From Bacteroidales bacterium (lineage in GTDB: Bacteria; Bacteroidota; Bacteroidia; Bacteroidales; B18-G4), in contig JAIOSQ010000092.1 of NCBI GenBank assembly GCA_021107535.1, forward strand, positions 1-37,472: DNA of 37,472 nucleotides, in the 5' to 3' direction. Each line of letters begins with the position of its first letter. Position 1 is the first letter of the stretch. The notes below the pieces were generated by a model. The model searched no databases, was not told the DNA's origin, and worked only from the letters and a program-made list of their open reading frames with translations. Below, piece by piece: positions 1,631 to 18,062 of the stretch. A program made the translations under genes and the position numbers.

Positions 1631-1741
1631 GACCTGAAAAGAATCCTTTTTAATATTTTGATTAAGATCTCTTTCCAATGTAAATTAATCGTATTGTTTC
1701 ACAGAATTACCTTGTTTATACCTTAAGCCTTTGTTATCAAG

Positions 1742-1918
1742 GCCCGTAAACAGAAATTGTCATCCTGATCCCGAGTTCTCGGGAGAAGGACCTCTGTCAG
1801 GTTGCTGTGCATTGGTAGAATTATGCTGCTGGAGGAAGTGCCTAATGCCTAGTGCCGAGTGGCTAGTGCCTATTTAGAGTGAAGATTTTAGAGTGAAGAA
1901 GTTGGCAATTCGCAGGCC
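1742..1918. repeat. 177-bp composite direct repeat, copy A
   Basis: Ungapped match to 2999-3175 with 16 mismatches counted by hand (~91%); contains the palindrome TCCCGAGTTCTCGGGA and a (GTGCCKA)n heptamer block. Confidence 0.95.
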
Positions 1919-1960
1919 TTATGCCGTTTGCCTTATGCCATTTGCCTTTTGCCTTTTGCC
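1917..1960. repeat. 7-bp tandem array (CCTTWTG-like)
   Basis: CCTTATG CCGTTTG CCTTATG CCATTTG CCTTTTG CCTTTTG. Confidence 0.9.
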
Positions 1961-2081: not shown

Positions 2082-2149
2082 GCTACATAACGGATAGCGG
2101 TAGATTACGTGCCTATGGCATGGAATCTGACCGCATGTTATTAGCTTCC
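2082..2149 (-). mobile_element. attC-like recombination hairpin downstream of the SMI1/KNR4 gene
   Basis: TAAC(2088-2091)...GTTA(2137-2140) ends; stems GCGGT/ACCGC, AGATT/AATCT, GTGCC/GGCAT; single unpaired G at 2129. Confidence 0.65.
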
Positions 2150-2201
2150 GTTTCTATTTTTTCATTATTTTATTAATTACATTATTAAAGATTCCAATAT
2201 T

Positions 2202-2798
2202 TTATTCTTCATTTATCTTTATAAAAGCCTTTTCTATCCATGCTTCATACCAACTAATAAAATCGTATTCTTTCGTAACTCCTGATGGCATGGTATCAAG
2301 TTCATTCAAATCAATTCTCCAAATTTTTCCTCTTTGTTCACCAGTTAAGACAATATATGCAAAATAAGTACATCCTTCTGTCATGATTGGTAAGATTCCA
2401 TTTGCAGTTTGTAACCGTTTATAATAGAACCCTTTCATGTTTGCTTTCTTCTTATTTATTAATTCAATTGCATCTTCGTTAGATAGATCAAACTCTTTCG
2501 AAAATTCACCCTGCTCATCAAGGCAATATTTCCATTCTTCAAATTCGCTTAACATTTTCTCTAAACCAAAAATTCCATAATCTGGTCCAGCCCCATATCC
2601 GATTTTAAGAATGAATTCTCTGAAATCATTGGGAAGATTTACACCTATTTTATTCTCAAAATTTGATAAATCTCTGTCGCTAACTTTTGCTGAGTGGTAT
2701 TTATGACTTCTTGCACCGAAAACTTCATACTTCTTATCACTTTTTTTTAATTTTTCAAGCTTAGACTGAATCTGTTCTATTTTCCTATCAGTATTCAT
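2202..2798 (-). CDS. SMI1/KNR4 (SUKH) family protein, putative toxin immunity protein
   Basis: FENKIGVNLPNDFREFI motif, GAGPDYG, EGCTY...GEQRGKIW; AT-rich relative to the core genes. Confidence 0.88.
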   Translation of the reverse strand: MNTDRKIEQIQSKLEKLKKSDKKYEVFGARSHKYHSAKVSDRDLSNFENKIGVNLPNDFREFILKIGYGAGPDYGIFGLEKMLSEFEEWKYCLDEQGEFSKEFDLSNEDAIELINKKKANMKGFYYKRLQTANGILPIMTEGCTYFAYIVLTGEQRGKIWRIDLNELDTMPSGVTKEYDFISWYEAWIEKAFIKINEE

Positions 2799-2825
2799 TT
2801 GATATCGTTTCTTGTTTTTTCTAAT

Positions 2826-2960
2826 GGAAGCTAACGGATTGGCGGCATGAGCTTTGCCGACAATCCTGTTTCTTATTGGGTTAAAGATACGGAAATCTCA
2901 GATATGAGCGCTTAAGGTTTTTAAAATCACGCGGCATTGCTTATGCTGGCTGTTATAAAT
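2826..2960 (-). mobile_element. attC-like recombination hairpin upstream of the SMI1/KNR4 gene
   Basis: TAAC(2832-2835)...GTTA(2952-2955) ends; arms GGCATGAGC/GCTTATGCT and TGCCG/CGGCA; starts with TAACGGAT, as does the 2088 site. Confidence 0.65.
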
Positions 2961-2998
2961 ACGTAGGCCAAGCTTGTTTATATCTAATTTTCACCAAC

Positions 2999-3175
2999 GC
3001 CCGTTAACAGAAATTGTCATCCTGATCCCGAGTTCTCGGGAGAAGGACCCCTGTCAGGTTGCTGTGCATTGGTAGAATCATGCTGCTGGAGGGAGTGCCG
3101 AGTGCCGAGTGCCTAGTGCCGAGTGCCTATCTGGAGTGAAGAGTTTATAGTGAAGAAGTTGGCAATTCACAAGCC
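2999..3175. repeat. 177-bp composite direct repeat, copy B
   Basis: Matches 1742-1918 at a constant offset of 1257 bp. Confidence 0.95.
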
Positions 3176-3206
3176 CATCGCCCACTGCCCACCGCCCACT
3201 GCCCAA
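3173..3206. repeat. 7-bp tandem array (GCCCAYY)n abutting the aconitase stop codon
   Basis: GCCCATC GCCCACT GCCCACC GCCCACT GCCCAA, then the stop codon at 3207-3209. Confidence 0.9.
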
Positions 3207-5465
3207 CTACGCGCCCTTAATCAAATTCAACGCACTACCAACCCTAAACCATTCGATCTGGTTTTTATTATAGCTGTGGTTTACCGGGAAAGAATCGCTT
3301 GTTCCATCGGCATGGTGTAAGGAGATGCTTAGGGCTTTTCCAGGCTGGAAATCGTCCAGTCCGTTGATATCTATCCTGTCGCCTTCAAGAACCTTGTTAT
3401 AATCGGCCTTGTCGGCAAAGATCAGGCCAAGCATTCCCTGCTTTTTCAGGTTGGTTTCATGTATCCTTGCAAAAGATTTTACGAGGACAGCCTTTACACC
3501 AAGATTTCTTGGTTCCATTGCGGCATGTTCCCTTGAGGATCCTTCACCATAGTTTTCATCCCCGATCACGATGCTTCCGTTCCCATTGGCTTTGTAATAA
3601 CGTGCGGCAGCGGGCACCGTTTCGTACTCAGCTGTTTCCTGATTTCTCACCTCATTGGTGGCATCATTAAAGGCATTCACTGCACCGATAAGCATATTGT
3701 TGGAGATATTATCCAGGTGTCCCCGAAAACGAAGCCAGGGGCCTGCCATGGAAATATGGTCGGTAGTGCATTTCCCTTTTGCTTTTATGAGCAGGTTGAG
3801 GCCTGTGATATCGTTTCCATCCCAGGCAGGGAAAGGTGTTAGTATCTGCAGGCGCTCGGATGAAGGGTCGACAATAACCTCCACGGCACTTCCATCCTCT
3901 GCCGGAGCAACATATCCGCTGTCTTCAACCGCAAAGCCCTTCAGCGGGAATTCTATGCCCTGTGGCTCATCCAGCTTCACCTTTTCACCGTCTTCATTCA
4001 CCAGGTAATCCGTTATGGGATTAAAGGTGAGATCGCCGGCGATAGCGAAAGCAGTTACTATCTCCGGTGAGGCCACGAAGCCGTACGTGTTGGGGTTGCC
4101 ATCATTTCTTTTTGCAAAATTCCTGTTGAAGGAGGTCATGATCGCATTTTTCTCCTGCTTGTCAGCTCCATGCCTTGCCCATTGGCCAATACAAGGCCCG
4201 CAGGCATTGGCCAGCACAACACCGCCAATCTTCCTGAATACGTCCAGGTATCCGTCCCGGTCAACAGTATAACGTACCAGTTCGGAACCAGGTGTAACCG
4301 TAAACTCTGATTTCACTTTCAGCTTTTTATCAATGGCCTGCCGGGCCACCGAAGCTGACCTGGTGATATCCTCATAAGAAGAGTTGGTACAGCTTCCTAT
4401 CAGCCCAACCTCCATTTTTACAGGCCAGTCATTTTCTTTCACGGCTGCAGCAAAGCCGGATAGTGGTGTGGCCAGGTCAGGGGTAAACGGACCGTTGATA
4501 TAGGGTTCCAGTTCCGAGAGATTGATCTCTATGAGCTGGTCAAAATATTTTTCCGAATTTGCATATACTTCGGGATCTCCTGTCAGCTGGGCCATCATCC
4601 TGTCTGCTTCGGCAGCCACTTCTTTCCTGTCGGTTCCCTCGAGGTATTCACGCATTTTGGCATCATATCCAAAGATGGAGGTTGTAGCCCCGATCTCAGC
4701 GCCCATATTACAAATGGTTCCTTTGCCGGTACAGGAAATGCTTTCAGCTCCGTCGCCGAAATATTCCACAATGGCACCGGTGCCGCCTTTCACGGTGAGA
4801 ATACCGGCCACCTTGAGAATCACATCTTTGGCAGATACCCATCCACTTAATCTTCCTGTAAGCTTCACCCCAATTAATTTTGGAAACTTCAATTCCCAGG
4901 GCATTCCGGCCATCACGTCCACTGCATCGGCCCCGCCGACACCAATGGCCACCATACCAAGTCCGCCTGCATTCACGGTATGAGAATCGGTCCCTATCAT
5001 CATCCCTCCGGGGAAAGCATAGTTTTCAAGCACCACCTGGTGGATGATGCCTGCACCGGGTTTCCAGAAGCCTATCCCATATTTGTCGGAAACCGAGGCA
5101 AGAAAACCATAGACTTCCTTATTGGTATCATTGGCTGTTTTCAGATCAGCGAGTGCGCCCACTTTCGCCCGGATCAGGTGATCGCAGTGTACTGTAGAAG
5201 GCACAGCAACCTTATTTCTTCCAGCCTGCATGAACTGAAGAAGGGCCATCTGTGCAGTGGCATCCTGCATGGCCACCCTGTCGGGCCTGAAATCAACATA
5301 TGAATCACCCCTGGCGTATGCGTGAGTTGCTTCTCCTTCATCCAGATGCGAATACAGTATTTTTTCAGTCAAGGTCAATGGTTTCCCAAGCACTCTTCTT
5401 GCTGCATCAATGCGTGATGCCATACGGGTATAAACACCCTTTATCATATCAATATCAAATGCCAT
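3207..5465 (-). CDS. acnA: Aconitate hydratase (mitochondrial-type)
   Basis: 752 aa; [49 protein letters not shown] motifs. Confidence 0.97.
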
Positions 5466-5567
5466 GCTATAATATTTATGTTTTTTCGTTCTTGCTGTTT
5501 ATGGTACTTACTCAAGATACAATTTACAAAGCCTTTTGTTTAACAAGGAAACACAATTTTCGTCCTC

Positions 5568-7196
5568 CTATTTCAATGGTTTCCAATCTGCAAAATGATC
5601 CGATACTACAAATGTCTTCGGCTCGGTGGTATAAAAGTCATTTGAATTGTAGGTCCAGCCCATGGTAGCGGAACCGCCTGCACTTTCTGTGGTGATGAGA
5701 AAGCGGTTGGAAAGGTGTCCGAAATAGTTGGCCTGGTTGCGTGGCAGTTTCTGGTCACCCCCGCTTGGGTCTACAGGGATCCATCCATAGTTCGGCAAAT
5801 ATACTTCCACCCAGCGGTGAAATACATCATCCATGCAATCATCATCTCCCCTCACAACTACTGCCCCGACATACCTGGCAGGTAATCCTGCTGCCCTGCA
5901 CATTGAAATGAAGACAAATGTGTATTCGGAGCAGGATCCGTTCCCACGTTCCAAAACTGTGGGGGCAGTGTTCCATCCGCCCACCATTTCATAATACATT
6001 TCACCCATAAGGAAATTGTATATTTTCCGTGCCATCCAGTACGGATTCTTTTCATCTCCAATCGCTCGCTCAACTGCTCCCTGAATGATAGGATGGTTAA
6101 GTTGATATTTCTCATTATCCTGAAAATAAACATCCTGGATATCCTCAGGTATCTCATCCAATCCACCTACTTTGTCGGGATAAATGAAATACCTGATCTC
6201 ATAGATCCGGGCTGTAGTAACCAGCTCTGCTTCCACCTTATCTCCTGCTTTCACATTTATAAATGAATAGTGTGCTGTTTGCTGCCCGCTTTTATCAGTT
6301 ACTATGGAGTAGCCCGGCTGGTACTGTATATGTTCAATGACCTGGTTATCCCTGTTACGGGGGACAGCCACATGGATATCGGCTGTAAGCATTTTTCCCG
6401 GGCCGAAATTTGTCAGCATATGGGTATAGCTTATCCTTGCATTCCTTTCATTTTTAAGCACAAAAAGGTCCTCATCTTTTGCTGTGAGGCAATAAAACTC
6501 ATCCTCCTGCGAATCGACAGCCCATATATATTTTCCATCCCATGCCAAACCACGGGTAAATGCGCCCGGGGCATCGGCAATGATCAGCACCTGTCCGTTA
6601 TCCGGGTCCACCATATAGATCTCGTCCAGTATACGGTCAGACACCCAGAGGTATCTCCCGTCAAATGCAAGTCCTCTCGGATCATTGGCGGGTGAACGCA
6701 GGGTTTTGATGGTGGTGCCGTCATCAGGGCTGAACTGTATGATCTCATCAGCCTTTTCATCTACACACCAGAGGTAGGTTCCATCCCACGCGAGGTCGCG
6801 GGGCCTGTCTGTGGGAGCAGGAATGACTTTTAAGACCCTACCGTCGACAGGAGACAGTTTGTAGATCATCCCCTGGTAGTTTTCCGACAGAGGTAAGCCA
6901 CCTTTCACATCCGCAGCCCAGAGCGCTTCACCATCCCAGGCAAGCCCCGTAGGCCAGTAGCCGGGAGAGGGAATACTTCTGATCATCATTCCAGTTGCGG
7001 GGTCCATGCAATAAATTTTCTGGTCTTTTCTGTCAGCAAGCCAGATATGCTTGCCATCAAATGTCATTCCTGTCGGGAAATTCCCCGGAGTATTGAATTT
7101 TTTGATAATCTGTCCGGGATAAGCGGATGATACCAGCGGCATCAGCATTCCTGCAATCAGCCCAATTGCAAAAAGTCGTTTGTAAGTGTTCATCAT
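5568..7196 (-). CDS. Secreted beta-propeller + transglutaminase-like domain protein
   Basis: Signal peptide; five P-x-G/D-L-A-W/F-D-G-type blades; transglutaminase core GSCSEY...HRWVEVY...WIPVDP. Confidence 0.88.
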   Translation of the reverse strand: MMNTYKRLFAIGLIAGMLMPLVSSAYPGQIIKKFNTPGNFPTGMTFDGKHIWLADRKDQKIYCMDPATGMMIRSIPSPGYWPTGLAWDGEALWAADVKGGLPLSENYQGMIYKLSPVDGRVLKVIPAPTDRPRDLAWDGTYLWCVDEKADEIIQFSPDDGTTIKTLRSPANDPRGLAFDGRYLWVSDRILDEIYMVDPDNGQVLIIADAPGAFTRGLAWDGKYIWAVDSQEDEFYCLTAKDEDLFVLKNERNARISYTHMLTNFGPGKMLTADIHVAVPRNRDNQVIEHIQYQPGYSIVTDKSGQQTAHYSFINVKAGDKVEAELVTTARIYEIRYFIYPDKVGGLDEIPEDIQDVYFQDNEKYQLNHPIIQGAVERAIGDEKNPYWMARKIYNFLMGEMYYEMVGGWNTAPTVLERGNGSCSEYTFVFISMCRAAGLPARYVGAVVVRGDDDCMDDVFHRWVEVYLPNYGWIPVDPSGGDQKLPRNQANYFGHLSNRFLITTESAGGSATMGWTYNSNDFYTTEPKTFVVSDHFADWKPLK

Positions 7197-7203
7197 ATTA
7201 GTT

Positions 7204-8166
7204 TTAAAATTCCAGGAGTCCCCTGCCGGTTTTCTTAATCAGTTCCTTTTCCTTCAGATCTGCAATAAGCTTATCCAGGATACCATTAATAAAAACCTTG
7301 CTTTTAGAGGAACTATAATATTTTGAGATCTCTATATATTCATTCAATGTCACCTTGACAGGGATGGAGGGGAAGGCCAGGATTTCAGCCAGAGCCATTT
7401 TAATCAATATCCTATCCATCATGGCGATCCGGTCGAGTTCCCAGTTTTTAGCCTTTTCATCAATCAGCTCTTCATACTTCTCGCTGTTCAGGATGGTTTT
7501 ACGAAATAAGTTGATCACAAACACTTTATCTTCCTCCTCGTCCTCGTTACTTTTAAGAAGTTCGGGCAATGCGGTGTATTCATCATCTGCTTCTTTCATC
7601 GACTTCAGCAGTTTCATGAGGAGGAGGTTTGCTATATGATACGCATCAAATGCCCAGTAAATAGATTTGTCTTCGTAGTAAGTTTCAAGCAATTCATAGC
7701 CTGAAAAGTTTTTCTTCACGATCTTCACAAGCATATCCTGATCCAGAACATAAGAAGATCCCTCATGTTCCATGTACTTCTTATAAAATTCACTTTCTTT
7801 CAATGTGAGATATGCCTTGCGGACCATTTCCGGTTCATTGCTCCAGTTTACTTTTAATTTATCATGAAATTTTCTGAATTCCCTGTTGTCCTCGAGCTGG
7901 GTAAGCGCTTTGTTTTCAACAAAACGCATATTCGGGTTCAGGTCTTCATCCGTAGGAAAAAACTTCTTTTTATTTTCTTCGCTGCGCTTAAGCGCAAAAT
8001 CCCTGATCTCAATCAGAAATGATAGTTGGTGGATATATAGTTCCCTGATTTTTTCAATACTGACCAGCAGCTGTTTCTCACCTTTGGCAAGGTCGCCGTT
8101 GTCGGATTGGAAGAAGGCATATACTGCCTGCAATACTTTGATCCTTAAGTGCCTTCTACTCAGCAT
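7204..8166 (-). CDS. nusB: Transcription antitermination factor NusB (long Bacteroidota form)
   Basis: MLSRRHLRIKVLQ start; NWELDRIA, VTLNEYIEISK, FINGILD. Confidence 0.95.
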   Translation of the reverse strand: MLSRRHLRIKVLQAVYAFFQSDNGDLAKGEKQLLVSIEKIRELYIHQLSFLIEIRDFALKRSEENKKKFFPTDEDLNPNMRFVENKALTQLEDNREFRKFHDKLKVNWSNEPEMVRKAYLTLKESEFYKKYMEHEGSSYVLDQDMLVKIVKKNFSGYELLETYYEDKSIYWAFDAYHIANLLLMKLLKSMKEADDEYTALPELLKSNEDEEEDKVFVINLFRKTILNSEKYEELIDEKAKNWELDRIAMMDRILIKMALAEILAFPSIPVKVTLNEYIEISKYYSSSKSKVFINGILDKLIADLKEKELIKKTGRGLLEF

Positions 8167-8204
8167 ATGGGTATGAACGAAATGGTTTACAAATCCTGAA
8201 GCTG

Positions 8205-8212
8205 CAAATGTA
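8205..8212 (-). promoter_or_regulatory. Bacteroidota -7 promoter box for nusB
   Basis: TACATTTG (TAnnTTTG) about 40 nt upstream of the start. Confidence 0.65.
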
Positions 8213-8229
8213 GAGATTTATCTAAAGAG

Positions 8230-8313
8230 TTCCAATGAAATTCCATCCCGATAGCTATCCAAAATACAAAATACAAAATACAAAGTCCAATGAAATTTCA
8301 AAGTCCAAATTCC
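8230..8313. repeat. Heptamer-based array (CAAAATA)n with TCCAATGAAATT motifs
   Basis: CAAAATA x3 plus CAAAGTC; TCCAATGAAATT at 8231 and 8286; partial palindrome CCCGATAGCTATC. Confidence 0.8.
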
Positions 8314-8326
8314 ATACATACCTCCG

Positions 8327-8440
8327 GTCCTGTGAGGAGCAGACGTTGGTAGCACGATCGGATCAACAACCAATCGCACCCCTACAGGGTGCTGTATTAT
8401 TTTTTCCATTATTTCTACCAACGTCTGGCCCCTATGGGGC
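8327..8440. repeat. REPIN-like element (inverted pair of GTAG-ended REP-like arms)
   Basis: Perfect 13-bp inverted repeat CAGACGTTGGTAG (8340-8352)/CTACCAACGTCTG (8415-8427); hairpins GCCCCTATGGGGC and GCACCCCTACAGGGTGC. Confidence 0.75.
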
Positions 8441-8460
8441 CTCTTAAAGGCCCAATGCAT

Positions 8461-8552
8461 TAAATCCCAAGCTCCAGGTTCCAAATTCCAATGAAATTTC
8501 AAAATCCATAATTCATAATTAACTCAACATCCAACACCCAACACCCAACACC
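8461..8552. repeat. Stacked heptamer arrays (AAATTCC-, ATAATTC-, CAACACC-type)
   Basis: Direct reading of 7-bp periodic blocks upstream of recQ. Confidence 0.85.
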
Positions 8553-8598
8553 TTTTTAAAATTTCATTAACTTCGTATCAGAAAACTGCCATGTAATT

Positions 8599-10520
8599 AT
8601 GGAGATCAGGAACATACTGGTAAAATACTGGGGCTATTCTTCTTTCCGCCCGATGCAGGAGGATATCATCCGCTCGGTGATGGGAGGAAAAGATACGCTT
8701 GCTTTGTTGCCGACAGGCGGAGGGAAATCTATCTGTTACCAGGTTCCCGGCCTGGCCATGGAAGGATTGTGCCTGGTTGTAACGCCACTGATCGCCCTGA
8801 TGAAAGACCAGGTTGAAAACCTTAAAAACAGGGGAATAAAGGCGGCTGCCATTCATTCCGGCATGCATAAGCGTGAAATTGAAACTGCCATTAGCAACAG
8901 CATTTTCGGCAATCTGAAGTTCCTGTATGTATCTCCTGAGCGACTTCAATCTTCATCTTTCAGGGAGAACCTGCAAAGGATGAACATCAACATTCTGGCT
9001 GTAGATGAAGCGCATTGCATCTCACAGTGGGGTTATGATTTCCGTCCTTCTTACCTGAATATCGCTGATATCAGGAAGATAGTCATGAATGCTCCGATAC
9101 TGCCCTCACAGCCACTGCTACTCCTGCAGTGATCGATGATATTCAGGAAAAACTCAGATTTGCTGAAAAGAATGTGATCAGGGATAGTTTTGAAAGGAAA
9201 AATCTATCCTATTCTGTTTTCCGTGAAGAGGACAAAGGCGGGAGATTGCTGAAGATCGTAAACAATGTGAAGGATTCAGGAATTGTATATGTACGAAACC
9301 GCAGAAAATGCCGGGAAGTTTCTGAATTTCTGAGCAAGAACAACATAAAGTCCACATATTATCATGCCGGACTGGAGCAGCGCATCAGGGAGCGACGGCA
9401 GGAAGAATGGATGAAGGATAAAAAGCAGGTCATCGTTGCCACCAATGCGTTCGGGATGGGCATAGATAAACCCGGGGTGCGCTTTGTGGTACACTATGAT
9501 CTGCCGGACAGCCTCGAAGCCTACTTCCAGGAAGCCGGAAGGGCCGGAAGGGATGGAAAGCGTGCTTATGCGGTATTGTTATACGAGGAGGCAGATATCC
9601 GTAATTCCAAGCAAAACCTATCCATTGCATATCCGGACCCCGAAGTGGTCAGGTCTGTGTACACTGCCCTGGGAAATTATTTTCAGATCCCTGTGGGCAG
9701 CGGCAAGGATCAGCAATTTGATTTTGATTTGCAGGACTTCTCAACCAGGTACAGGATGAATTCAGCAAGCGCATACAGTGCCTTGAAATTACTTGAAAAA
9801 GAGGGTCATATTATCCTCGGCAGCGATCTGGAAAGCCCATCGAAGATCATGTTCGAGATTGATCACAATGAGCTGTATACATTCCAGGTTGAAAATCCCG
9901 GCTATGACACCTTTATCAAATTGATTCTTCGTTCCTATGGCGGAATCTTTTCCGATTTTGTCAAGATCAATGAAAAAGAGCTGGCAAAACGTGCAAATAC
10001 AACGGAAGATAAAATTATCAAGGCACTTTGGAAACTGGATAAGCTCAGACTGCTTACCTATATCCCAATGACCACATCACCACAACTTGTCCTGACACAG
10101 GGGCGGATTGACAGTAAATCGATGAGGCTGTCAAAAGAAAACTATAGTGACAGAAAGAAAGCAGCCATGAAACGAATGCAGGCTGTCCTTGACTATATTC
10201 AGTCTGCAAACCATTGCCGGAGCCAGATCCTCCTGAAGTATTTCGGAGAAAAAGATGCCGGCAGGTGCGGCAGGTGTGATGTATGCCTTGACAGGAATAA
10301 GATCAATGTCAGCGAATTGGAATTCAGCAAGGTACTGGAAAAGATTAAGCCGGCTTTGAAAGAAAGGCCACAGGCACTGAACGAACTGCTCTTCATTGCA
10401 AAAGAATTCCCGGAAGACAAAGTCATCAACGTGATTATGTGGCTGGTGGATAATGAAAAAGTTGATGTAAACGAAGACCAGTTATATTCCTGGAGAAAAC
10501 AATTCAAATTGATGTTGTAA
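8599..10520 (+). pseudogene. recQ: ATP-dependent DNA helicase RecQ, split by a 1-bp frameshift near 9102 (real lesion or sequencing error)
   Basis: ORF 8599-9132 has LPTGGGKS and DEAHCISQWG; ORF 9129-10520 has ATNAFGMGIDK, QEAGRAGRDG and the Zn-binding CR...CGRCDVC; adding one G at 9102 restores LALTATATP. Confidence 0.9.
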
Positions 10521-10566
10521 AACGAATATAAAAACAATAATTTTACATAAATAAACAAACCAAATA

Positions 10567-11307
10567 ATGATGAAAAAACAGCTCGCGCTTGTATCAAGCA
10601 TTACCCTGATTATTAGTCTGTTCTTTACAACTGCCATGTCACAGGAAGGTGACGTATATGTAAGCATCGGGGCAGGTGTCTGCATTCCGTTGGCAGAGTA
10701 CAGCAATACGGATTTCGATGATGAGGGTTCCGGTTTTGCCAGAACCGGAGGTGCCTTTAATATCAATTTCGGATACCGCTTTAATGAGTATATCAGTTTG
10801 TCGGGATTACTGAGCGGGGGTGTTAACCGCTATGATTATATCAAGTTACAGGAATGGCTGGCGAATGAAAACGCTGAAACCCTGCCGGAAACCAGCTGGG
10901 TGGTTGAAAGTAAAAACTGGGGGCTTGGCGGTTTTATGGCCGGTGTAACCGGATCCCTGCCCCTCGTCACCAACACCTTTTATATCGAAGCAAGGGCGCT
11001 TGCGGGATTTATGTATACTTATTCCCCGACCATTGATGTTACAGGAAAAGAAACAGGTGTTGAGGACAAGAAGATCAACATTGAGCAATCCTCTGCTATT
11101 TCCTGGTCGCTCGATGCCGGAATTGGCCTGCGCTATAACAGATCAAGAAAGCATTACTTCATCCTCAATGCTGATTATCTGATGACAGAGCCCTATTTCA
11201 CTGATGTGCGCACCAATACCAATTTCGGAGTCGAGAGAGATGAAGCATACACACAGAAAATAAGTACTGTTAACATTACCATTGGGATTGGGTATATTGT
11301 TAATTAG
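10567..11307 (+). CDS. Outer-membrane beta-barrel domain protein
   Basis: Signal peptide, alternating beta-strands (FNINFGYRF, LDAGIGLRY), C-terminal ITIGIGY. Confidence 0.78.
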   Translation: MMKKQLALVSSITLIISLFFTTAMSQEGDVYVSIGAGVCIPLAEYSNTDFDDEGSGFARTGGAFNINFGYRFNEYISLSGLLSGGVNRYDYIKLQEWLANENAETLPETSWVVESKNWGLGGFMAGVTGSLPLVTNTFYIEARALAGFMYTYSPTIDVTGKETGVEDKKINIEQSSAISWSLDAGIGLRYNRSRKHYFILNADYLMTEPYFTDVRTNTNFGVERDEAYTQKISTVNITIGIGYIVN

Positions 11308-11314
11308 CCCTGGG

Positions 11315-11338
11315 CCCTTCGACAAGCTCAGGACAGGC
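11315..11338. repeat. Single REP-like arm CCCTTCGACAAGCTCAGGACAGGC
   Basis: Shares the CCTTCG...CTCAGGA skeleton with the arm at 292-336; lies just after a stop codon. Confidence 0.5.
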
Positions 11339-11379
11339 TGGTGGGCATGGATACTAAGTTATAAACCACAAATAGTTTC

Positions 11380-11979
11380 ATGAAAATTAAGAAGTCATTC
11401 TATTTAAATGACGATGTGGTGTTCATGGCCAGGGCTTTTCTTGGAAAGATCCTAATAACAAATATTGACGGACTTTATACTTCCGGGATCATCACCGAAA
11501 CGGAAGCCTATGCCGGCATTGTTGATAAGGCCTCCCATGCATTCGGAAACCGCCAAACCCAAAGGACTGCACCTATGTACTTGGATGGTGGAGTTGGCTA
11601 TGTATATCTGTGTTACGGCATTCACTCTTTGTTTAATATAGTCAGTGCGCCTTCAGGTGTTCCGCATGCCATCCTTATTCGCAGCATTCACCCGCTTGAC
11701 GGGCTCGCGATCATGCAGAAAAGGAGGAAGTTAGTTCGCAATAAAGGGCTCTGCGATGGCCCCGGAAAAGTGTCGCAGGCACTGGGCATACATTATACGG
11801 ATTCGGGAACGGATCTCTGCGGTAGCCGCATATGGATCGAAGACAGGGGAATTATTGTCGATCCTGAAAGGATAACAGCAGCACCGAGGGTTGGCGTGGA
11901 TTATGCGCAGGAGGATGCTTTACGGCCTTATAGGTTTTTATTTGATTATGGGGTTGGGCAATGGGCGGTGGGCGGTTAA
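11380..11979 (+). CDS. mpg: DNA-3-methyladenine glycosylase (AAG/MPG family)
   Basis: ITETEAY...DKASHA, YVYLCYGIH, AILIRS, GPGKVSQALGI, PRVGVDYA. Confidence 0.93.
   Translation: MKIKKSFYLNDDVVFMARAFLGKILITNIDGLYTSGIITETEAYAGIVDKASHAFGNRQTQRTAPMYLDGGVGYVYLCYGIHSLFNIVSAPSGVPHAILIRSIHPLDGLAIMQKRRKLVRNKGLCDGPGKVSQALGIHYTDSGTDLCGSRIWIEDRGIIVDPERITAAPRVGVDYAQEDALRPYRFLFDYGVGQWAVGG
11950..11977. repeat. 7-bp array (GGGCRRT)n forming the last codons of mpg
   Basis: GGGCAAT GGGCGGT GGGCGGT; reverse complement of the unit at 3173 and 36824. Confidence 0.7.
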
Positions 11980-12016
11980 AAAAGGGCCATTCGCCTTTGG
12001 CGAACAGCCCTTTAAA
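11978..12016. terminator. Intrinsic terminator between convergent mpg and HU
   Basis: AAAGGGC-CA-TTCGCC-TTT-GGCGAA-CA-GCCCTTT with an A-run on the left (U-tract for HU). Confidence 0.8.
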
Positions 12017-12032
12017 AATACTTTTCAGGTAA

Positions 12033-12305
12033 TTATTTTACTGTATTTGAAAGTTCGCTACCTGGTTTGAACTTAACTACTTTTTTAGCAGCAATGTTAA
12101 TTTCTTTCCCTGTTTGAGGGTTTCTGCCTTTTCTGGCAGCACGTTTTGTAACACCAAAGGTGCCGAAGCCAACGAGGGCAACGCGATCACCTTTTTTCAG
12201 GGCACCGGAAGTAGCATCAATAAATGCTTCGAGAGCTCTTTTGGCATCAGCTTTGGTTAAACCAGCATCTGCAGCCATTGCGTCAATTAATTCAGCTTTA
12301 TTCAT
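12033..12305 (-). CDS. hup: HU family DNA-binding protein
   Basis: MNKAELID...VALVGFGTF...RKGRNPQTG...VVKFKPG. Confidence 0.97.
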
Positions 12306-12345
12306 TTTACATTGATTTTAATTAATAAATAGTTTAAAAACCTTG

Positions 12346-12353
12346 CAAATATA
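12346..12353 (-). promoter_or_regulatory. Bacteroidota -7 promoter box for HU
   Basis: TATATTTG on the minus strand. Confidence 0.7.
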
Positions 12354-12473
12354 AGGGTTTTAGAAGAAATGTCAAGCATTTGCATCTAAAACATGCAAAA
12401 ATGTTAATAAATGTGAGGTTTTGTTAATAGCTCTGCTTCAAAAAGCCTATTTCCGTAGTGTTTTAACGAACTT

Positions 12474-13454
12474 TCAAGCGTTTCGGGAGGTTTTAAATAA
12501 AACACTGGGACTCAGGCCAATCAGGAAATCACCAATGGCCATACGTCTCTTCCCTGCCTGCTGCAATTCCAGAACCGAAATACATCCATCCCTACAACAA
12601 ATATTAAAATAAGATTTACCGTCTGTCATCACCGTTCCGGGAATATCCGTACAGGGGCAGGGTTTTATTTCTGCGCGGAAGATCTTTATATACATCTTTT
12701 CTCCACCGGCTACGGGGATTTCTGTAAAAGCACCAGGGGTAGGGCTCAGTCCGCGTATAAGGTTATATACCACTTCGCAATCCTCAGACCAGTCAATTCG
12801 GCAATCTTCCTTGAAAATCTTCGGAGCTGTTCTCAGCACCACTCCCTCATCAATCAATTCGTCCTGCTTTTGTGTAAGGACATGTCCGCCTTTTATGGCT
12901 TCCACTGTTTTTACCAATAAGGAAGCACCCATGAGCTTGAGCCGGTCATGATATTCACCTGCAGTCTCAGAAGAACTGATCTTTGTCTCTTCCCTGAATA
13001 TAATGTTACCGGTATCCATCCGCTCTTGAAGGAAAAAGGTAGTCAATCCGCCGGTTTTCTCCCCGTTCATGATGGTCCTGTTTATCGGAGCGGCCCCGCG
13101 ATACTGAGGTAAGAGGGAAGCATGCAGGTTAAAAGTTCCCAGAAGTGGGATGGACCAGATAACTTCAGGCAGCATTCTGAAAGCAACCACAATATATAAT
13201 GTAGCGTTTAATTGTTTCAATTGCCCGATAAAGGAAGGATCTTTCAGGTTTTCCGGCTGAAGGACAGTCAGCTTATGTTCCAGGGCAAATGTTTTTACCG
13301 GTGACATGCCAAGCTTCCTGCCCCGGCCGGATGGCCTGTCAGGAGTTGTAACGACAGCACAAACATCATAGTTTGCTGAAAGCAGGGCATTCAGTGAGGC
13401 TACAGCAAAATCGGGAGTCCCCAAAAAGATGATGCGGATGTTTTTATCAGCCAT
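12474..13454 (-). CDS. fmt: Methionyl-tRNA formyltransferase
   Basis: IIFLGTPDFA, PDRPSGRG, NLHASLLPQYRGAAPI. Confidence 0.97.
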   Translation of the reverse strand: MADKNIRIIFLGTPDFAVASLNALLSANYDVCAVVTTPDRPSGRGRKLGMSPVKTFALEHKLTVLQPENLKDPSFIGQLKQLNATLYIVVAFRMLPEVIWSIPLLGTFNLHASLLPQYRGAAPINRTIMNGEKTGGLTTFFLQERMDTGNIIFREETKISSSETAGEYHDRLKLMGASLLVKTVEAIKGGHVLTQKQDELIDEGVVLRTAPKIFKEDCRIDWSEDCEVVYNLIRGLSPTPGAFTEIPVAGGEKMYIKIFRAEIKPCPCTDIPGTVMTDGKSYFNICCRDGCISVLELQQAGKRRMAIGDFLIGLSPSVLFKTSRNA

Positions 13455-13478
13455 GGCATGAAAATAAAGTCTAAAAGT

Positions 13479-13510
13479 AAAAAAAATACCCGCTCATCAT
13501 GAACGGGTAT
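13479..13510 (-). terminator. Intrinsic terminator after the TPR gene
   Basis: ATACCCG...CGGGTAT stem with an adjacent A-run (U-tract on the minus strand). Confidence 0.7.
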
Positions 13511-13537
13511 CCTATATTATTTCAGAAATATTATTCT

Positions 13538-14230
13538 TTATTCATTTTCCATAATTCGCTTGATCCTGGCCATATTCCTTTCAATGTTGCGGGCCTCCGG
13601 AGCACGATAATACTCCCTGTAGATCCTGTCATACACATCATAAGCATCCTGATATTCCTTCTGCATTTCATAAGTCATTCCGGCTTTATAAAGGAATAAA
13701 GGAGTTGTAAAATCATTTACATTCTCATCGGCGGCTTCCAAATAATAGCGGACAGCCTGTTTCGGGTCATTGAGCTCAAGGTACGCATCTCCCAGGGCAC
13801 CCAGTGCCATTGGCCCGATGATCTGATCTGAGGGATCATGCTGCTCCAGGTATTCGATAGCCTCCTCAAAATTACCCATCCTCAGGTAGCAGATACCTGC
13901 ATAATATGTTGCCAGGTTTCCTGTGTTTGTGCGGCCATAATCATCAATGATATCGAGAAATCCAAGTGCATTTCCATCACCATAAAGGGCACGGCTTAAT
14001 GAGTCCATTTCAAAGTATTTCTGTGCCATGAAGATCTGTTCCTGGGCACTTTCTTCCATCGGACTGATATAAAACTTTTTGTATCCGAAATATCCAAGAA
14101 CTATAATGAGAATACCCAGAACGATATAGATCAGGATGTTCTGATTTTTCTCAATAAACTGTTCTGTTTTTCCCAGTGCCTCCTCAACAGCAACCATTCT
14201 GTCATCGCCTGCGGTAGTCTTTTTAGCCAT
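13538..14230 (-). CDS. Membrane-anchored tetratricopeptide repeat protein (YfgM-like)
   Basis: Single TM helix followed by TPR motifs (YYAGICYLRMG, ALGDAYLEL, LYKAGMTYE). Confidence 0.88.
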   Translation of the reverse strand: MAKKTTAGDDRMVAVEEALGKTEQFIEKNQNILIYIVLGILIIVLGYFGYKKFYISPMEESAQEQIFMAQKYFEMDSLSRALYGDGNALGFLDIIDDYGRTNTGNLATYYAGICYLRMGNFEEAIEYLEQHDPSDQIIGPMALGALGDAYLELNDPKQAVRYYLEAADENVNDFTTPLFLYKAGMTYEMQKEYQDAYDVYDRIYREYYRAPEARNIERNMARIKRIMENE

Positions 14231-14253
14231 AAGTATTTAATTTTTTGGTGGTG

Positions 14254-14261
14254 CAAAAGTA
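14254..14261 (-). promoter_or_regulatory. Bacteroidota -7 promoter box for the TPR gene
   Basis: TACTTTTG on the minus strand. Confidence 0.65.
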
Positions 14262-14345
14262 AAGGTTTTCTTTATATCATATATAATAAGAGGGTGATTT
14301 TTTTACTTGGGGGTGAAAAAAGACCGAATCCTATATGCATGATGT

Positions 14346-14404
14346 TACTGGATACTGGATACTGGATACCGGGAATTATTAGTTATTAGTGATTAATTAT
14401 TAGT
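14346..14404. repeat. Stacked heptamer arrays (TACTGGA)n then (AGTTATT-like)n
   Basis: TACTGGA x3, TACCGGG, then AATTATT AGTTATT AGTGATT AATTATT. Confidence 0.85.
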
Positions 14405-14572
14405 GGAGATTGGGATTTTAGAATTTTAAGGGTTGAATGATTCGAATTTCATCACAAGCAGATACCGAATACTGGATTTTACTTTATGAAATCCTTCGGT
14501 CCTTTGTGTTTCCACAAAATCCCGAACTCCTCAATCAAAATTCTACATTCCCAATCCTTACCAATAATTAAT
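14392..14572. repeat. 38-bp imperfect inverted repeat with 105-bp spacer (MITE-like)
   Basis: 14392-14429 vs reverse complement of 14535-14572: 31/38 identical by hand. Confidence 0.7.
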
Positions 14573-15133
14573 TGTAATATAGCATAACACAGTTAAAATT
14601 TTTACGGAGTTGTTAAGAATATAGCTAATCTATTGAAAATCAATCCTTATACAGAGGTTGCTTAACAGTCCTGTTTATAGCACAACATGTTTGACATTTT
14701 TTGTATGAGGATTAGCAATCTACAGGTGTTTTATATGGAAACAACTGGATAATATTGTTGTCCTGTCTAACGATCAAACATTGATTGTCTATGTTTACTT
14801 CTGCTACTACATAAGAGTATTTTAGTGTTTCTTTCACTTTAATTTAAACGATTCCGTTGGTAGTTATAATCGAAGGTCACTTCAAATAAACCTGATAAAA
14901 TAGATGCTCTCCGTTTCTAAGGGGATCTTTTTTAGAGTATGTATCGATCCTTGATAAAGATCTGATATCTGCATTTGTTTTGCTACCTCATTAGGAGTCC
15001 TATGATTCTGAATACTATACCTATGATTTTCATTATGGAAGATGAAAAAATCTTTTGAAGCCCGGCTATGATGATTATTGATTAGCAATGATTAGTAGTT
15101 TAGAATGTTAATTTCTGAATGACTCGAATTTCT

Positions 15134-17479
15134 TCATTTCAATTCTTTTTTTGTTTTTTGAAGCAAAGGGGCAAAAGATTGACTTGCAATAAAAGGAAAA
15201 CGGCAATAGAAAACTGCATTCCAGTGGTTGGCATCTGTAGCAGTTACATCTGCACCCTCCTTCATTAAAGCCTTAACCAAATTAACATCATCAATAATGG
15301 CCGCATACATCAGAGCAGTGAGGCCAAACTCATCAGTTGCATTAACATTTGCTCCTTCTTTCAGCATCCTTTTATATTTCTTTTTATCCTTTGACTTTAT
15401 TGCATCTAAAAACAACCTATCTGATTCATTGATTGTCAAATAAGGGTTATTTCCGGTTTCCGCATCTTCTATATCTATGAATGTTAGATTATTAAGATCG
15501 ATTGCCAGTATACCCGGACAGGGGAATTCTTTTTTATCTCGCAATGTCAGTGCATCATATACTTTGTATTCATATGTTTCAGGTTGAGGATTGCTCATAT
15601 TAATGCCTTTTGTAATAAGAATATCATTAACAATATCATAATAGATCAGGTTGGGCAGGGTAATAAGATTACCTGTATTTTCAGGGGCTAATAATACATT
15701 TGCCCGTTTTGCCATTTCAAGGTTAGTAATTGATAAATACCAACCCTTATCGTAAAATGGCCTGACATAATAAGTGTTTCCTAATGATTTATTGTGAAGA
15801 TATGACGGTAATATATTTCTCATTGTATATAAATTGTAAAAATTAATCACCTGTGTTTGCTTAACTGCTATCATCGTGGCCCCCACAGCTTGTGAAACCG
15901 CATTTCCAACAGCCGTAACCATCTGTTCCATGGCTTGCGTCTGACCAGCGATAATTACTGCTTCATGGGCATTTATTTCTTGTTCTAATGCAAACATTTT
16001 TTCAGAGGAGGTGCTCGTCTTGTTATTCATTACTTTTTCTGTATAATCATGACTCTTAGCTGCCCATGCCTGGGCTCTTTCAAGTCCATTTGATGAATAA
16101 TAAAGACTCGCCTGTTTTGCGTTATGATTTACTTTATTCGGATCACTTCCACGCAGGGAAAAGGCATTCATTTTATGGATGTTGTATCCTGAAGTATACA
16201 ACATTGAATTAGCAACATAATCAGATAATATCAACTTCCCCGTTTCTTTATTAAAAACCGCTACTCCCGTTTCGCGGCCAATCAATATTTTGTTTTCCCT
16301 GATTTCAATATTATCAACCAATTGCTTATCAAAACATAGTGCATCTGGAATTTTTCTTGTATATATAAGCTGTCCGGTTTTATTGTCGATAGAAAGAAGC
16401 TGGGTAATGGTAGTAAAATATATGAAGGACTCTTCAATTATTATCGGACTAAACAGACTCCCGTTAAATTCAGTTGCCCAGATCTTCTGGTAGTTTTCAG
16501 AATTGTAACATTCTAATAGGGTCGGCCCCTTATTTAAAGTACTGTCTTCTGTAACTAAATACAAGTGATCATAATAAATAGCGACATTTCGGATAATTCT
16601 GTCAGAATTCAGGCTCCATAATACATTCCCGGTATTAATGTGTACGTATTCAAGCCATTCATATGAGTATATCACCAGCTTGCCTTTTTTATAGAAAAAA
16701 CTAAGTATTGTCTCTTCTTCATTGGAATAAGTCTTCTCCCATAATAAGGAGTTATCATTGAGGCTAACGCAAAATACCTTGTTATTTATAATTATCACCA
16801 GGTATTCATCAAATAATTGCAAGCGGATCTCATGTTTTTTAAGTTTCATGTCAGTATCGATCAGCAAGGAACCGGTAATATTTCCACGAATAATATCAAT
16901 AAATGATATATCAAGCTCATCCTTATCCTTTTCAATGATGATCAATTCATTATCGACATGATTAAAGGTGTACGAAGCAGTTTTTGATTTAAGTTCTTTT
17001 TCCCAGAGGATTTCTCCGGTTCTATTGTCAATTGCATGATATGTCATTTTTGCATTTTCATCCTTCATGCTATGAAGCAATATCACGGGTTCTGCACACA
17101 AAATATTTTGCTTGTGCATGTAAAATTCTTCCCGGTCAATTTCCCATTTAACCTTCGCGCTTTTAATGTCCATCAGAAATAATTTCCCTGATTTTTTAGT
17201 CCACATTCCTGTATTAATATCCAATGTCCCCACCAAAACATATTGTTGGTCAATTACCTTGATATAATCGACTTCATTTTCCATGATGGTCTTTGACCAG
17301 ACAATGCCTTCCTGATACTTGTCTTCACTGCCATCTGTGACGGGGATATATGCAAAGGATGGTTTGATGCTGCAACATATTAATAGTGCAAAAACATATA
17401 ATATCAGAAAGGGTTTGTAAGCGTGAAAGCTTAAGATATTCAAAGCACTGAATTCAATAATAGTCTTTAAAAGTTTCAT
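15134..17479 (-). CDS. Exported PQQ/BamB-like beta-propeller protein with C-terminal ankyrin repeats
   Basis: Hydrophobic N-terminus; TGEILWE, TGNVLWS, NSLLWE blades; GANVNATDEFGLTALMYAA...GADVTATD ankyrin motifs; AT-rich. Confidence 0.8.
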   Translation of the reverse strand: MKLLKTIIEFSALNILSFHAYKPFLILYVFALLICCSIKPSFAYIPVTDGSEDKYQEGIVWSKTIMENEVDYIKVIDQQYVLVGTLDINTGMWTKKSGKLFLMDIKSAKVKWEIDREEFYMHKQNILCAEPVILLHSMKDENAKMTYHAIDNRTGEILWEKELKSKTASYTFNHVDNELIIIEKDKDELDISFIDIIRGNITGSLLIDTDMKLKKHEIRLQLFDEYLVIIINNKVFCVSLNDNSLLWEKTYSNEEETILSFFYKKGKLVIYSYEWLEYVHINTGNVLWSLNSDRIIRNVAIYYDHLYLVTEDSTLNKGPTLLECYNSENYQKIWATEFNGSLFSPIIIEESFIYFTTITQLLSIDNKTGQLIYTRKIPDALCFDKQLVDNIEIRENKILIGRETGVAVFNKETGKLILSDYVANSMLYTSGYNIHKMNAFSLRGSDPNKVNHNAKQASLYYSSNGLERAQAWAAKSHDYTEKVMNNKTSTSSEKMFALEQEINAHEAVIIAGQTQAMEQMVTAVGNAVSQAVGATMIAVKQTQVINFYNLYTMRNILPSYLHNKSLGNTYYVRPFYDKGWYLSITNLEMAKRANVLLAPENTGNLITLPNLIYYDIVNDILITKGINMSNPQPETYEYKVYDALTLRDKKEFPCPGILAIDLNNLTFIDIEDAETGNNPYLTINESDRLFLDAIKSKDKKKYKRMLKEGANVNATDEFGLTALMYAAIIDDVNLVKALMKEGADVTATDANHWNAVFYCRFPFIASQSFAPLLQKTKKELK

Positions 17480-17530
17480 TGCAAGTTAGTTATAGTTCAA
17501 CTTAGTAAAATACAATACAATTCTCTTTTT

Positions 17531-17538
17531 CAAATATA
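17531..17538 (-). promoter_or_regulatory. Bacteroidota -7 promoter box
   Basis: TATATTTG about 50 nt upstream of the 781-aa gene. Confidence 0.55.
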
Positions 17539-17606
17539 ATAAAATGAATTGATTGGATTAAAACCCGGCGAAAAAATAAGGGATTCTGGTACAAGGATGA
17601 CTTTGG

Positions 17607-17627
17607 GTGATAGGTGTTAGGTGATAA
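17607..17627. repeat. Short 7-bp array (GGTGWTA)3
   Basis: GGTGATA GGTGTTA GGTGATA. Confidence 0.65.
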
Positions 17628-17668
17628 ATAGCACTACATTGGTGCCTGCGTAAAAACATATTGTCATT

Positions 17669-18007
17669 TCAACTGAATATAATAATCTCTACGATTAAAT
17701 AAACCAGCCAGACTACACTTATTATTGAAGTGATTTTAAATCCTTTCATTAATTCATTTTTATTTTGTTTGCGATATTTTGAGTAGAAAAAAAGTGAAAG
17801 TCCGGCAATAATTATTGCAAAACCAAAAACAATATAGGGGATATAGCCGATTTGTGCCAATGGGTAGTAAAACAATGGAAATAAGGGTTCGGAATCACCA
17901 TATTGGATTTTTGCAATGAGATTTGATATTGGAATGATCGCAAAGTAAAAAAGCAAAACGATTCCTAAATATCCGAAAACAACCCAAAATCTTTTTTTTA
18001 TTTTCAT
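17669..18007 (-). CDS. Hypothetical membrane protein (3 predicted TM helices)
   Basis: 112-aa ORF, three hydrophobic segments, ATG preceded by an A-rich leader. Confidence 0.7.
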   Translation of the reverse strand: MKIKKRFWVVFGYLGIVLLFYFAIIPISNLIAKIQYGDSEPLFPLFYYPLAQIGYIPYIVFGFAIIIAGLSLFFYSKYRKQNKNELMKGFKITSIISVVWLVYLIVEIIIFS

Positions 18008-18062
18008 CTTTTAATTTATTTAAAATGTTAATAAGGCCCGCTGGCGTTTAGTTTATCGTTGT

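Follow-up and report, generated by a model that had tools for sequence, protein, structure and literature searches.

The window analyzed here is the whole of contig C244, 37,472 nt long, from a marine-sediment Bacteroidota metagenome-assembled genome (MAG; here G000) that comprises 3.41 Mb on 341 contigs, is 91% complete, and has a GC content of 41.8%. The four genes at the left end of the window all lie on the minus strand and encode a Fic/DUF4172 protein (412-1518, 42% GC), an SMI1/KNR4 protein (2202..2798), an aconitase (3207-5465), and a transglutaminase-like protein. The SMI1/KNR4 gene and the two sequences that flank it are the subject of this study. A first-pass annotation took them for a mobile cassette of the integron type, set between two attC-like hairpins, with no integrase in the window, and indeed no recombinase gene is present there. 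For comparison, we used G011, the closest (sister) species, G130 and G388, which belong to the same order, and G321, which is Lishizhenia tianjinensis.

The SMI1/KNR4 (SUKH-1) gene encodes 198 amino acids that match Pfam family PF09346 (E value of 9.8e-11) as well as PF14568 and PF14567, and by these family matches its product is a predicted immunity-type protein. Its GC content is 31%, versus a median of 43% for the open reading frames (ORFs) of G000; ORFs with a GC content of 34% or less make up 6.6% of the 2641 in the genome. The gene has no match in 300 other genomes of the order, and among 5.8 billion proteins we found 12 other relatives of its product, the best of which is 66% identical. 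In all nine of the relatives' loci that were fetched, neither the SMI1 gene nor the Fic gene lies downstream of aconitase. When an empty site was searched for by DNA similarity in these relatives, the region 3' of aconitase was found to differ in 9/9 loci, and no clean empty site was obtained.

Downstream of the gene lies site 1 (2082..2149, minus strand, with its hairpin at 2088-2140), the cassette's putative own attC-like site. Folded as single-stranded DNA, its plus strand reaches -16.6 kcal/mol (z score of -4.83; equaled by 0/200 shuffles) and its minus strand -13.4 kcal/mol (z score of -3.86), so that the plus strand, which is the gene's bottom strand, folds better. The hairpin is closed by TAAC/GTTA, and a single G (position 2129, plus strand) stays unpaired in the fold, as expected from the lone extrahelical G that had been described for this site; canonical attC sites have two or three extrahelical bases. 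On the gene strand, site 1 consists of an R'' box, GGAAGCTAATAAC (2149-2137), a spacer AT, an L'' box, GCGGT-C-AGATT (2134-2124), whose extrahelical C corresponds to G2129, a loop with a small stem (2123-2107), an L' box, AATCTACCGC (2106-2097), a spacer TATCC, and an R' box, G|TTATGT (2091-2085). Site 1 is single copy in G000 by blastn and nhmmer, and no run of T residues follows it. A second cassette beyond site 1 was also sought, and the complement of GTTATGTAGC was not found.

The inferred cassette measures 744 nt (2091..2834, minus strand); read along the gene strand, it starts with the TT that follows G2835 and ends with G2091. Its boundaries are based on the G|TT at both sites, on the end of conservation at GTT of the upstream repeat (E135, see below), and on the complement GTTAGCTTCC / GGAAGCTAA-TA-AC. 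The 5' boundary, G|TTAGCTTCC (2826..2835, minus strand), is complementary to the R'' extension of site 1, in that GGAAGCTAA (2826-2834) and TTAGCTTCC (2141-2149) form a perfect 9-nt inverted repeat. That both sites start alike, as had been claimed, is confirmed by the presence of TAACGGAT at each of them, and the pattern TAACGGAT.{1,2}GCGG occurs at these two places only in the 3.41-Mb genome. Furthermore, sites 1 and 2 share a direct repeat with 20/25 matches (2071-2095 versus 2815-2839), a value reached by 6/2000 shuffles. In the contigs of four public marine-sediment runs (X1, X3, X4, and X5), which drop rare variants, no joint that skips 2091-2835 was found. Two of them, X4 and X5, come from another study; both include the gene together with the E135 junction (about 98.5% identity) but leave 2005-2168 uncovered and hence are not evidence on this point. 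In the runs of that study, the Fic region is only about 89% identical, in comparison with about 98.5% for the SMI1 gene, which suggests that the locus is a mosaic. The AT-rich region upstream of the Fic/DUF4172 gene (1519-1730) contains a 47-nt direct repeat (1531-1577 and 1584-1630).

The signature that defines these boundaries is found at other genes of G000. In a strict scan of its 2641 ORFs, a perfect 10-nt GTT+N7 at most 200 nt upstream was required to have its complement, N7'+AAC, at most 120 nt after the stop codon, and the control paired the 5' and 3' flanks of different genes. The scan was positive for 14/2641 ORFs, versus 3 in the control. With seven other anchor triplets, real counts were 1-16 against control counts of 0-11, and only GTA (7 versus 0) was also well above its control. 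A relaxed scan that allowed 1-3 extra bases before AC gave 17 positives, versus 2-6 in five controls, and recovered the gene of the window together with its 5' boundary. Seven matches of the strict scan and ten of the relaxed scan were set aside, the ten being seven in heptamer tandem repeats and three doubtful ones (AT-rich or distant). The genes kept are one on C74 (preceded by E135), two adjacent genes on C78, one on C87, two adjacent genes on C340, and the window gene, all with a GC content of 0.34 or lower. The six genes outside the window have a perfect 10-nt GTT.../...AAC complement and attC-type 3' sites, and starts akin to that of the window cassette (GTTAGCTGGC, GTTAGCCACA, and GTTAGCAAAC) are found at other cassettes.

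When read on the gene strand, the 3' sites line up as one family. The C78-2 site is composed of R'' ..GTATAAC, spacer A, GCGGCT-C-ATAG ... CCATAGCCGC, spacer AAACC, and G|TTAGCTGGC; the C340-1 site of R'' ..GGCTAAC, spacer A, CGCAAT-CA-TAGCC ... GGCCATATTGCG, spacer GGAAC, and G|TTAGCAAAC; and the site of about 135 nt that is shared by C340-2 and C135 of the sister species (G011:C135) of R'' ..AAC, spacer A, GCAAAT..ATAGCC ... CATATTTGC, spacer ..CAC, and G|TTG. In the same notation, site 1 of the window has R'' ..GCTAATAAC, and the E135 site has R'' ..CATAAC, spacer A, GCCAGCATAAGC ... GCTCATGCCGGCC, spacer AAAC, and G|TT. The spacers thus measure 1-2 nt between R'' and L'' and 4-5 nt between L' and R', and an extra C or CA stands at the same position of L'' in site 1, C78-2, C340-1, and C340-2. 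Because the C78, C340, and G011:C135 sites share the layout of site 1, the noncanonical box spacing, which the first-pass annotation had pointed out, and the lone extrahelical G are traits of the site family.

The other cassettes carry genes for proteins with a type IX secretion system (T9SS) tail, for unknowns, and for a histidine kinase, and C74 has a ParDE pair. The arrays of C78 and C340 both begin at contig ends inside one sequence of about 130 nt that ends in ..CGTTTAGCGCGGC|GTTA; relatives of this array-head sequence occur in 2/400 other genomes of the order, namely, G130 and G388. On C74 (2317-3060), the site upstream of the ParD/ParE pair has the conserved 5' extension of E135 (CCTACGCATTTATAAC) and a different interior, which ends in ..CAAACC|GTTGTATG; judged from its sequence, this unit looks like another cassette beside the histidine kinase cassette. 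Further runs of four or five co-oriented short genes with 26-33% GC are found at C87:1747-5411 and C122:13657-17892, and C87 has a repeated intergenic unit of about 200 nt as well as two cassette-type junctions. A structured element of about 215-250 nt lies between cassettes in G000 on C78 (L090 2779-2939) and C340 (L091 1-124) and also in G130 and G388. Its 12-nt end arms vary by genome and stay complementary (GTAGCGCTAAAC/GTTTAGCGCTAC in G130 and GAGGAGCTAAAC/GTTTAGCTCCTC in G388), and it is a candidate for a long recombination site or an RNA, with no match in Rfam. Over the window, no Rfam family reached its gathering score; with E values up to 10, the segment 1500-3300 gave only unrelated families far below threshold, and five loci searched with E values up to 0.1 gave no match.

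On the aconitase side, the cassette start abuts E135 (2832..2968, minus strand), an imperfect palindrome of about 135 nt with an attC layout, which would be the upstream partner of the cassette. This flank had been presented as a hairpin private to the cassette, a view that we correct: the flank is the terminal part of a repeat of which G000 has 15 copies (blastn and nhmmer profile). The sister species has about 10 copies and three other genomes a single copy each, so that E135 is present in 5/23 genomes of the family. On the gene strand, the window copy reads ..CATAAC-A-GCCAGCATAAGC....GCTCATGCCGCC-AATCC-G|TT, and the conserved span of the family runs from ..GCCTACGCATTCATAAC to ..CCGGCCAAAC|GTT, where similarity ends. 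An ORF starts 15-100 nt past the GTT end in 14/15 copies, the 15th copy being located at a contig edge. The linked genes are often of low GC content and encode PAS histidine kinases, a sulfatase, a nitroreductase-like protein, T9SS-tailed proteins, and a small ribbon-helix-helix-like protein. A search for orthologues of two of these genes in five close relatives yielded none, only matches of 34-42% identity, and empty-site searches with the E135 loci of C226 and C25 gave matches that are mostly heptamer repeats. E135 precedes three signature-bearing cassettes (those of the window, C74, and G011:C135), and in an ungapped 12-mer junction test of 12 copies, C74 alone was positive.

The E135 palindrome comprises ATAAC, a 4-nt bulge, an arm of 12-13 nt (with G-T pairs on the plus strand), and a further 6-bp arm. 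Its long-range fold is the minimum-free-energy structure in 8/23 copies folded, and in 17/23 the plus strand (bottom strand with respect to the gene) folds more stably. In the window copy, the minimum-free-energy structure has only a local hairpin (2833-2870), without pairing of TAAC (2832) with GTTA (2955). The earlier description of both flanks as TAAC...GTTA hairpins therefore holds for site 1 (z score of -4.83) and not for the minimum-free-energy fold of the upstream site. Consensus folding of 22 copies gave no structure on the plus strand and 6 pairs on the other strand. On the plus strand of E135 (e.g., window 2820-2846), an ATG located 9-10 nt before AAC opens a mini-frame of 8 codons in 6/22 aligned copies. 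This frame, M-x-x-N-V/G-W/L-P/A-A-stop, ends at a conserved TGA and is antisense to the downstream gene; in a seventh copy with the ATG, the frame reads on. The gene-strand equivalent of its start is the recurrent GTT-N6-CAT at cassette starts.

E135 and site 1 might instead be the ends of a small nonautonomous transposable element, derived from a miniature inverted-repeat transposable element (MITE) or from IS200/IS605, that brought the gene along. E135 does have imperfect terminal inverted repeats of about 26-30 nt, and its distribution is patchy and multicopy, with about 10 copies in two of the five genomes that have it. However, there is no target site duplication and no linked transposase, the conservation extends about 15 nt past one arm into other repeat modules, and site 1 does not belong to the E135 family (no nhmmer match at E values up to 10). 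We regard such an origin as highly improbable. Between the aconitase gene and E135 lies D1b (2988..3206), a repeat that resembles repetitive extragenic palindromes (REPs) or MITEs and consists of a GTCATCCTGA..GAAGGAC hairpin plus heptamer repeats; a second copy, D1a (1731..1960), is found downstream of site 1, and D1b is 89% identical to 1731-1918. The D1 module abuts E135 in other E135 copies as well. As a side observation, window segments 43-354, 1731-1960, and 2988-3206 belong to a dispersed composite repeat in which a hairpin module is followed by heptamers (TGCCGAG, TGCCTTA, CCCACTG, and similar). In blastn, the window copies 1725-2000 and 2985-3206 had 75 and 94 hit segments, respectively, including self, and some copies have inverted terminal modules in the manner of MITEs or REPs. 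We also considered the module together with E135 as a cassette whose start complements the conserved R'' extension of E135, and rejected this candidate, as a second copy is absent from the window and the genome.

A homologue of the SMI1 protein in L. tianjinensis (47% identity) is encoded within a run of about 17 co-oriented, low-GC, and mostly family-less ORFs (G321:C6:170000-189999, at about 5056-18600). Its gene lies between G|TTAGCCAA... and ...TTGGCTAAC, and a 68-nt GGCTAAC..GTTAGCC hairpin follows. Its cassette start, GTTAGCCAA, complements its own 3' R'', TTGGCTAAC, at 9/9 positions, and the same is seen at three other cassettes of the array: G|TTGTGGCTA with TAGCCACAAC (10/10), GTTAGGCAATAT with ACATTGCCTAAC (11/12), and GTTAGTGGC with GCCACTAAC (9/9). 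In the array and elsewhere in the Lishizhenia genome, there are at least 6 repeats of a noncoding unit of about 600 nt, whose end, ..CACTTG|TTAG, directly precedes genes.

G130 and G388 each have cassettes that begin just past a Xer-like recombinase gene and an attI-like sequence and share the orientation of that gene. G388, a one-contig genome, has a gene for a 301-amino-acid tyrosine recombinase and, within about 130 nt, G|TTGCCAGC, a low-GC gene for 283 amino acids, and GCTGGCAAC, after which come an element of about 250 nt and a second low-GC gene. In G130, ..CGTTTAGCCATAC|GTTAGGC and a gene come after the gene for a 280-amino-acid recombinase, and farther along lie GTTATATGGC, a gene, and GCCATATAAC. 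Both recombinases match the integron integrase profile in two pieces and skip positions of about 180-238, the profile region in which, according to PMC8138268, the insertion needed for integron function falls. The G130 recombinase, the one scanned against NCBIfam, passes NF040815 (Xer-type, "tyrosine recombinase/integron integrase") with 226.8 bits at a cut-off of 220.

These recombinases bear on the possibility that the window cassette is the remnant of a classical integron (a cluster of attC sites lacking integrases, CALIN) whose true IntI was lost or is missing from an assembly of 341 contigs and 91% completeness. The AAC/GTT boxes, the extrahelical base, the more stable bottom strand, and the complement between start and R'' are attC properties, and the C78 and C340 cassette contigs both end within a repeat. 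The G388 and G130 recombinases, however, are contiguous, lack the IntI-specific insertion, and are co-oriented with the cassettes, and the spacers of 1-2 and 4-5 nt differ from the usual attC geometry. Moreover, no integron integrase (TIGR02249) was found at the cut-off of 265 in any of the six genomes searched, the best scores being 95.1 bits in G000, 75 in G321, 107 in G322, 123 in G323, 136 in G388, and 127 in G130. Because no integrase reached the cut-off, the unit does not qualify as a member of the classical integrons. Integrons have been reported in Bacteroidota (PMC8618304 and PMC9024848), and for Bacteroidetes, IntegronFinder 2.0 gave a single complete classical integron, in Salinibacter (PMC9024848). 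Altogether, we judge a classical remnant to be quite unlikely.

The recombinase of the G000 cassettes was not identified, because the best homologue of the G130 recombinase (43% identity) is located on C160 by an IS91-type transposase gene, and three others are cut by contig ends. On C160 (4145-5514), the gene for this Xer-like tyrosine recombinase is followed 12 nt on by an IS91 family (Zn_Tnp_IS91/Y2_Tnp) transposase gene, which is cut by the contig end; this pair is unrelated to the cassettes.

The closest known counterpart is rAID-1 of Bacteroidales, in which a recombinase of the XerD family is associated with short orphan immunity genes of low GC content that share one orientation, many of which belong to the SUKH family, and with intergenic repeats "reminiscent of integrons," the mode of array growth being still open (10.1101/471110; PMC12247911). 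The window shares with rAID-1 a short, low-GC, immunity-type gene (SUKH/SMI1-KNR4) of horizontal acquisition. Repeated intergenic sequences occur here too, namely, E135, the element of about 250 nt, and the site of about 135 nt of C340 and G011:C135, and may correspond to the published rAID-1 motifs. By description, the Xer family recombinases that head co-oriented arrays in G130 and G388 resemble that of rAID-1. Unlike rAID-1, the window has a single cassette away from an array or a recombinase, beside housekeeping genes and in a marine-sediment MAG. While rAID-1 calls for at least two co-oriented short genes below 41% GC, the window has the SMI1 gene at 31% next to the Fic gene at 42%; such gene runs are present on C78, C340, and C87 of G000. 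The accessible parts of the rAID-1 papers name no hairpins, attC sites, or G|TT boundaries, and the words integron, attC, hairpin, and inverted repeat do not occur in the accessible 2025 text (PMC12247911). Likewise, a literature search found no description of G|TT boundaries or attC-like folds for rAID arrays, although figure S4 of the 2019 preprint may bear on this.

As in integron cassettes, the unit starts after G|TT and has a 3' folding site whose R'' complements its first bases. As in attC sites, there is an extrahelical base in the L boxes, folding is better for the bottom strand, and the sites may be long (about 135 nt) or short (about 55-70 nt); the toxin-antitoxin genes (ParDE on C74) and unknowns are like the cargo of integrons and CALINs. 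In contrast to integrons, no IntI was found in the genomes searched, the contiguous recombinases without the IntI insertion are oriented as the cassettes are, the spacers are those given above, and one site family, E135, is scattered over positions upstream of many genes. The unit also resembles an attG insertion, i.e., the insertion of an integron cassette at a nonclassical genomic site (the term attG appears in PMC12901181), in being a lone chromosomal cassette away from an integron platform; it differs in that its partner is a structured, repeated element of the attC type, not a simple genomic GTT, and in the class of recombinase. The SMI1 unit is probably a further member of the recombinase-associated cassette systems that are already known, and poorly understood, in Bacteroidota.

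Taken together, we consider it probable that a cassette of about 744 nt, part of an integron-like system in this Bacteroidota lineage, carries the SMI1/KNR4 gene. The first-pass annotation had proposed a mobile cassette from a Bacteroidota attC-like system and had made this depend on the recurrence of such sites and on the flanks of homologues. The proposal is supported because similar sites do occur elsewhere (15 copies of E135 and six more genes in G000, and the signature in G011, G130, and G388) and because the Lishizhenia homologue has the same flanks.

Several observations weigh against this interpretation. (i) In broad windows, the 9-nt inverted repeat is within chance expectation, being reached by 68/2000 shuffles in windows of 121 x 91 nt and by 85/500 in windows of 90 x 200 nt, and thus carries weight because of its position only; moreover, the complement of TTAGCTTCC and GGAAGCTAA, although 9/9, is gapped, lying 2-3 nt from AAC. 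(ii) Site 1 closes in place by 9 bp (GCTA-C-ATAAC / GTTAT-TAGC). For this reason, the earlier statement goes too far where it denies that the outer ends of the unit are complementary to their current partners, while their complementarity to each other stands. (iii) The sequence past site 1 is similar to the leader of the cassette (20/25), a likeness that simple insertion does not predict; all cassette leaders observed consist of GTTA, about 6 nt, and an A-rich run, and this common form may account for part of the likeness. (iv) A genome-wide scan for TAAC..GTTA hairpins found 2, not above control tetramers, with a filter that missed site 1. (v) Covariation among 22 E135 copies supports neither the long-range nor the local helices better than shuffles do. 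(vi) The cassette signature was found downstream of only 3/25 E135 copies examined, the loci of other genomes reaching about 1.4 kb downstream, and a divergent upstream gene is present at about 5/11 copies, which indicates that the copies are dispersed rather than arrayed and are placed like promoter elements. (vii) In G000, no recombinase is linked to the cassettes and there is no recombinase-adjacent low-GC array, and the window cassette stands alone, without an array, among housekeeping genes and the 42%-GC Fic gene.

Alternatively, the SMI1 gene could be an ordinary horizontally acquired gene, with site 1 as its terminator, E135 as a promoter or leader repeat or a MITE, and the shared TAACGGAT..GCGG and the 9-nt inverted repeat due to a small local duplication or chance. 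E135 lies in the 5' intergenic regions of very different and partly large genes, one E135 locus is orthologous in G000 and G011 at one place, and Flavobacterium homologues are flanked simply by terminator palindromes; the insignificance of the inverted repeat in broad windows, the lack of a joint across the unit in the four runs, and the lack of covariation agree with this as well. An ordinary gene leaves unexplained, however, the GTT/AAC complement at six other low-GC genes (controls, 3), the shared spacing and extrahelical base of the 3' sites, the end of E135 conservation at GTT, and the recurrence of the arrangement after a recombinase in G130 and G388, and site 1 has no T run after it. 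We therefore find this explanation unlikely.

Returning to the integron-like cassette, the sites would fold as single strands, and a Xer-like recombinase would recombine them at G|TT; this enzyme would act in trans, its gene being located at another place in the genome or on a mobile element. Through recombination between two sites, a circular SMI1 cassette would have entered the E135 copy that lies 3' of the aconitase gene, with E135 or the A-rich leader supplying expression. Excision would leave a circle with the joint ...TATCCG|TTAGCTTCC... and an emptied locus in which E135 ...AATCCG is joined to TTATGTAGC. By analogy to the SUKH proteins of rAID arrays, the SMI1 product may neutralize a polymorphic toxin. 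It is conceivable, though doubtful, that there exists in Bacteroidota a whole analogue of the integron, in which a Xer-like recombinase without the IntI insertion acts on folded attC-type sites with a crossover at G|TT and, in addition to the arrays, scattered E135 copies (15 in G000) serve as landing pads for cassettes such as that of the SMI1 gene, which could thereby settle, and perhaps be expressed, beside housekeeping genes and at a distance from any recombinase.

Arrays of the rAID type are abundant in Bacteroidales, and the mechanism of their growth is open. The locus and its relatives provide G|TT boundaries, a site architecture (spacers, extrahelical base, and favored strand), and candidate recombinases, and with boundaries at base level the mechanism becomes directly testable. 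The system reaches beyond the gut to marine-sediment lineages and to Flavobacteriales. There is a hint that the dispersed attC-type repeat E135 is a partner for cassettes outside arrays, and such single cassettes matter for the annotation of accessory genes and for the spread of defense and immunity genes. If it proves true, an integron analogue with E135 landing pads would supply the missing mechanism by which rAID arrays grow.

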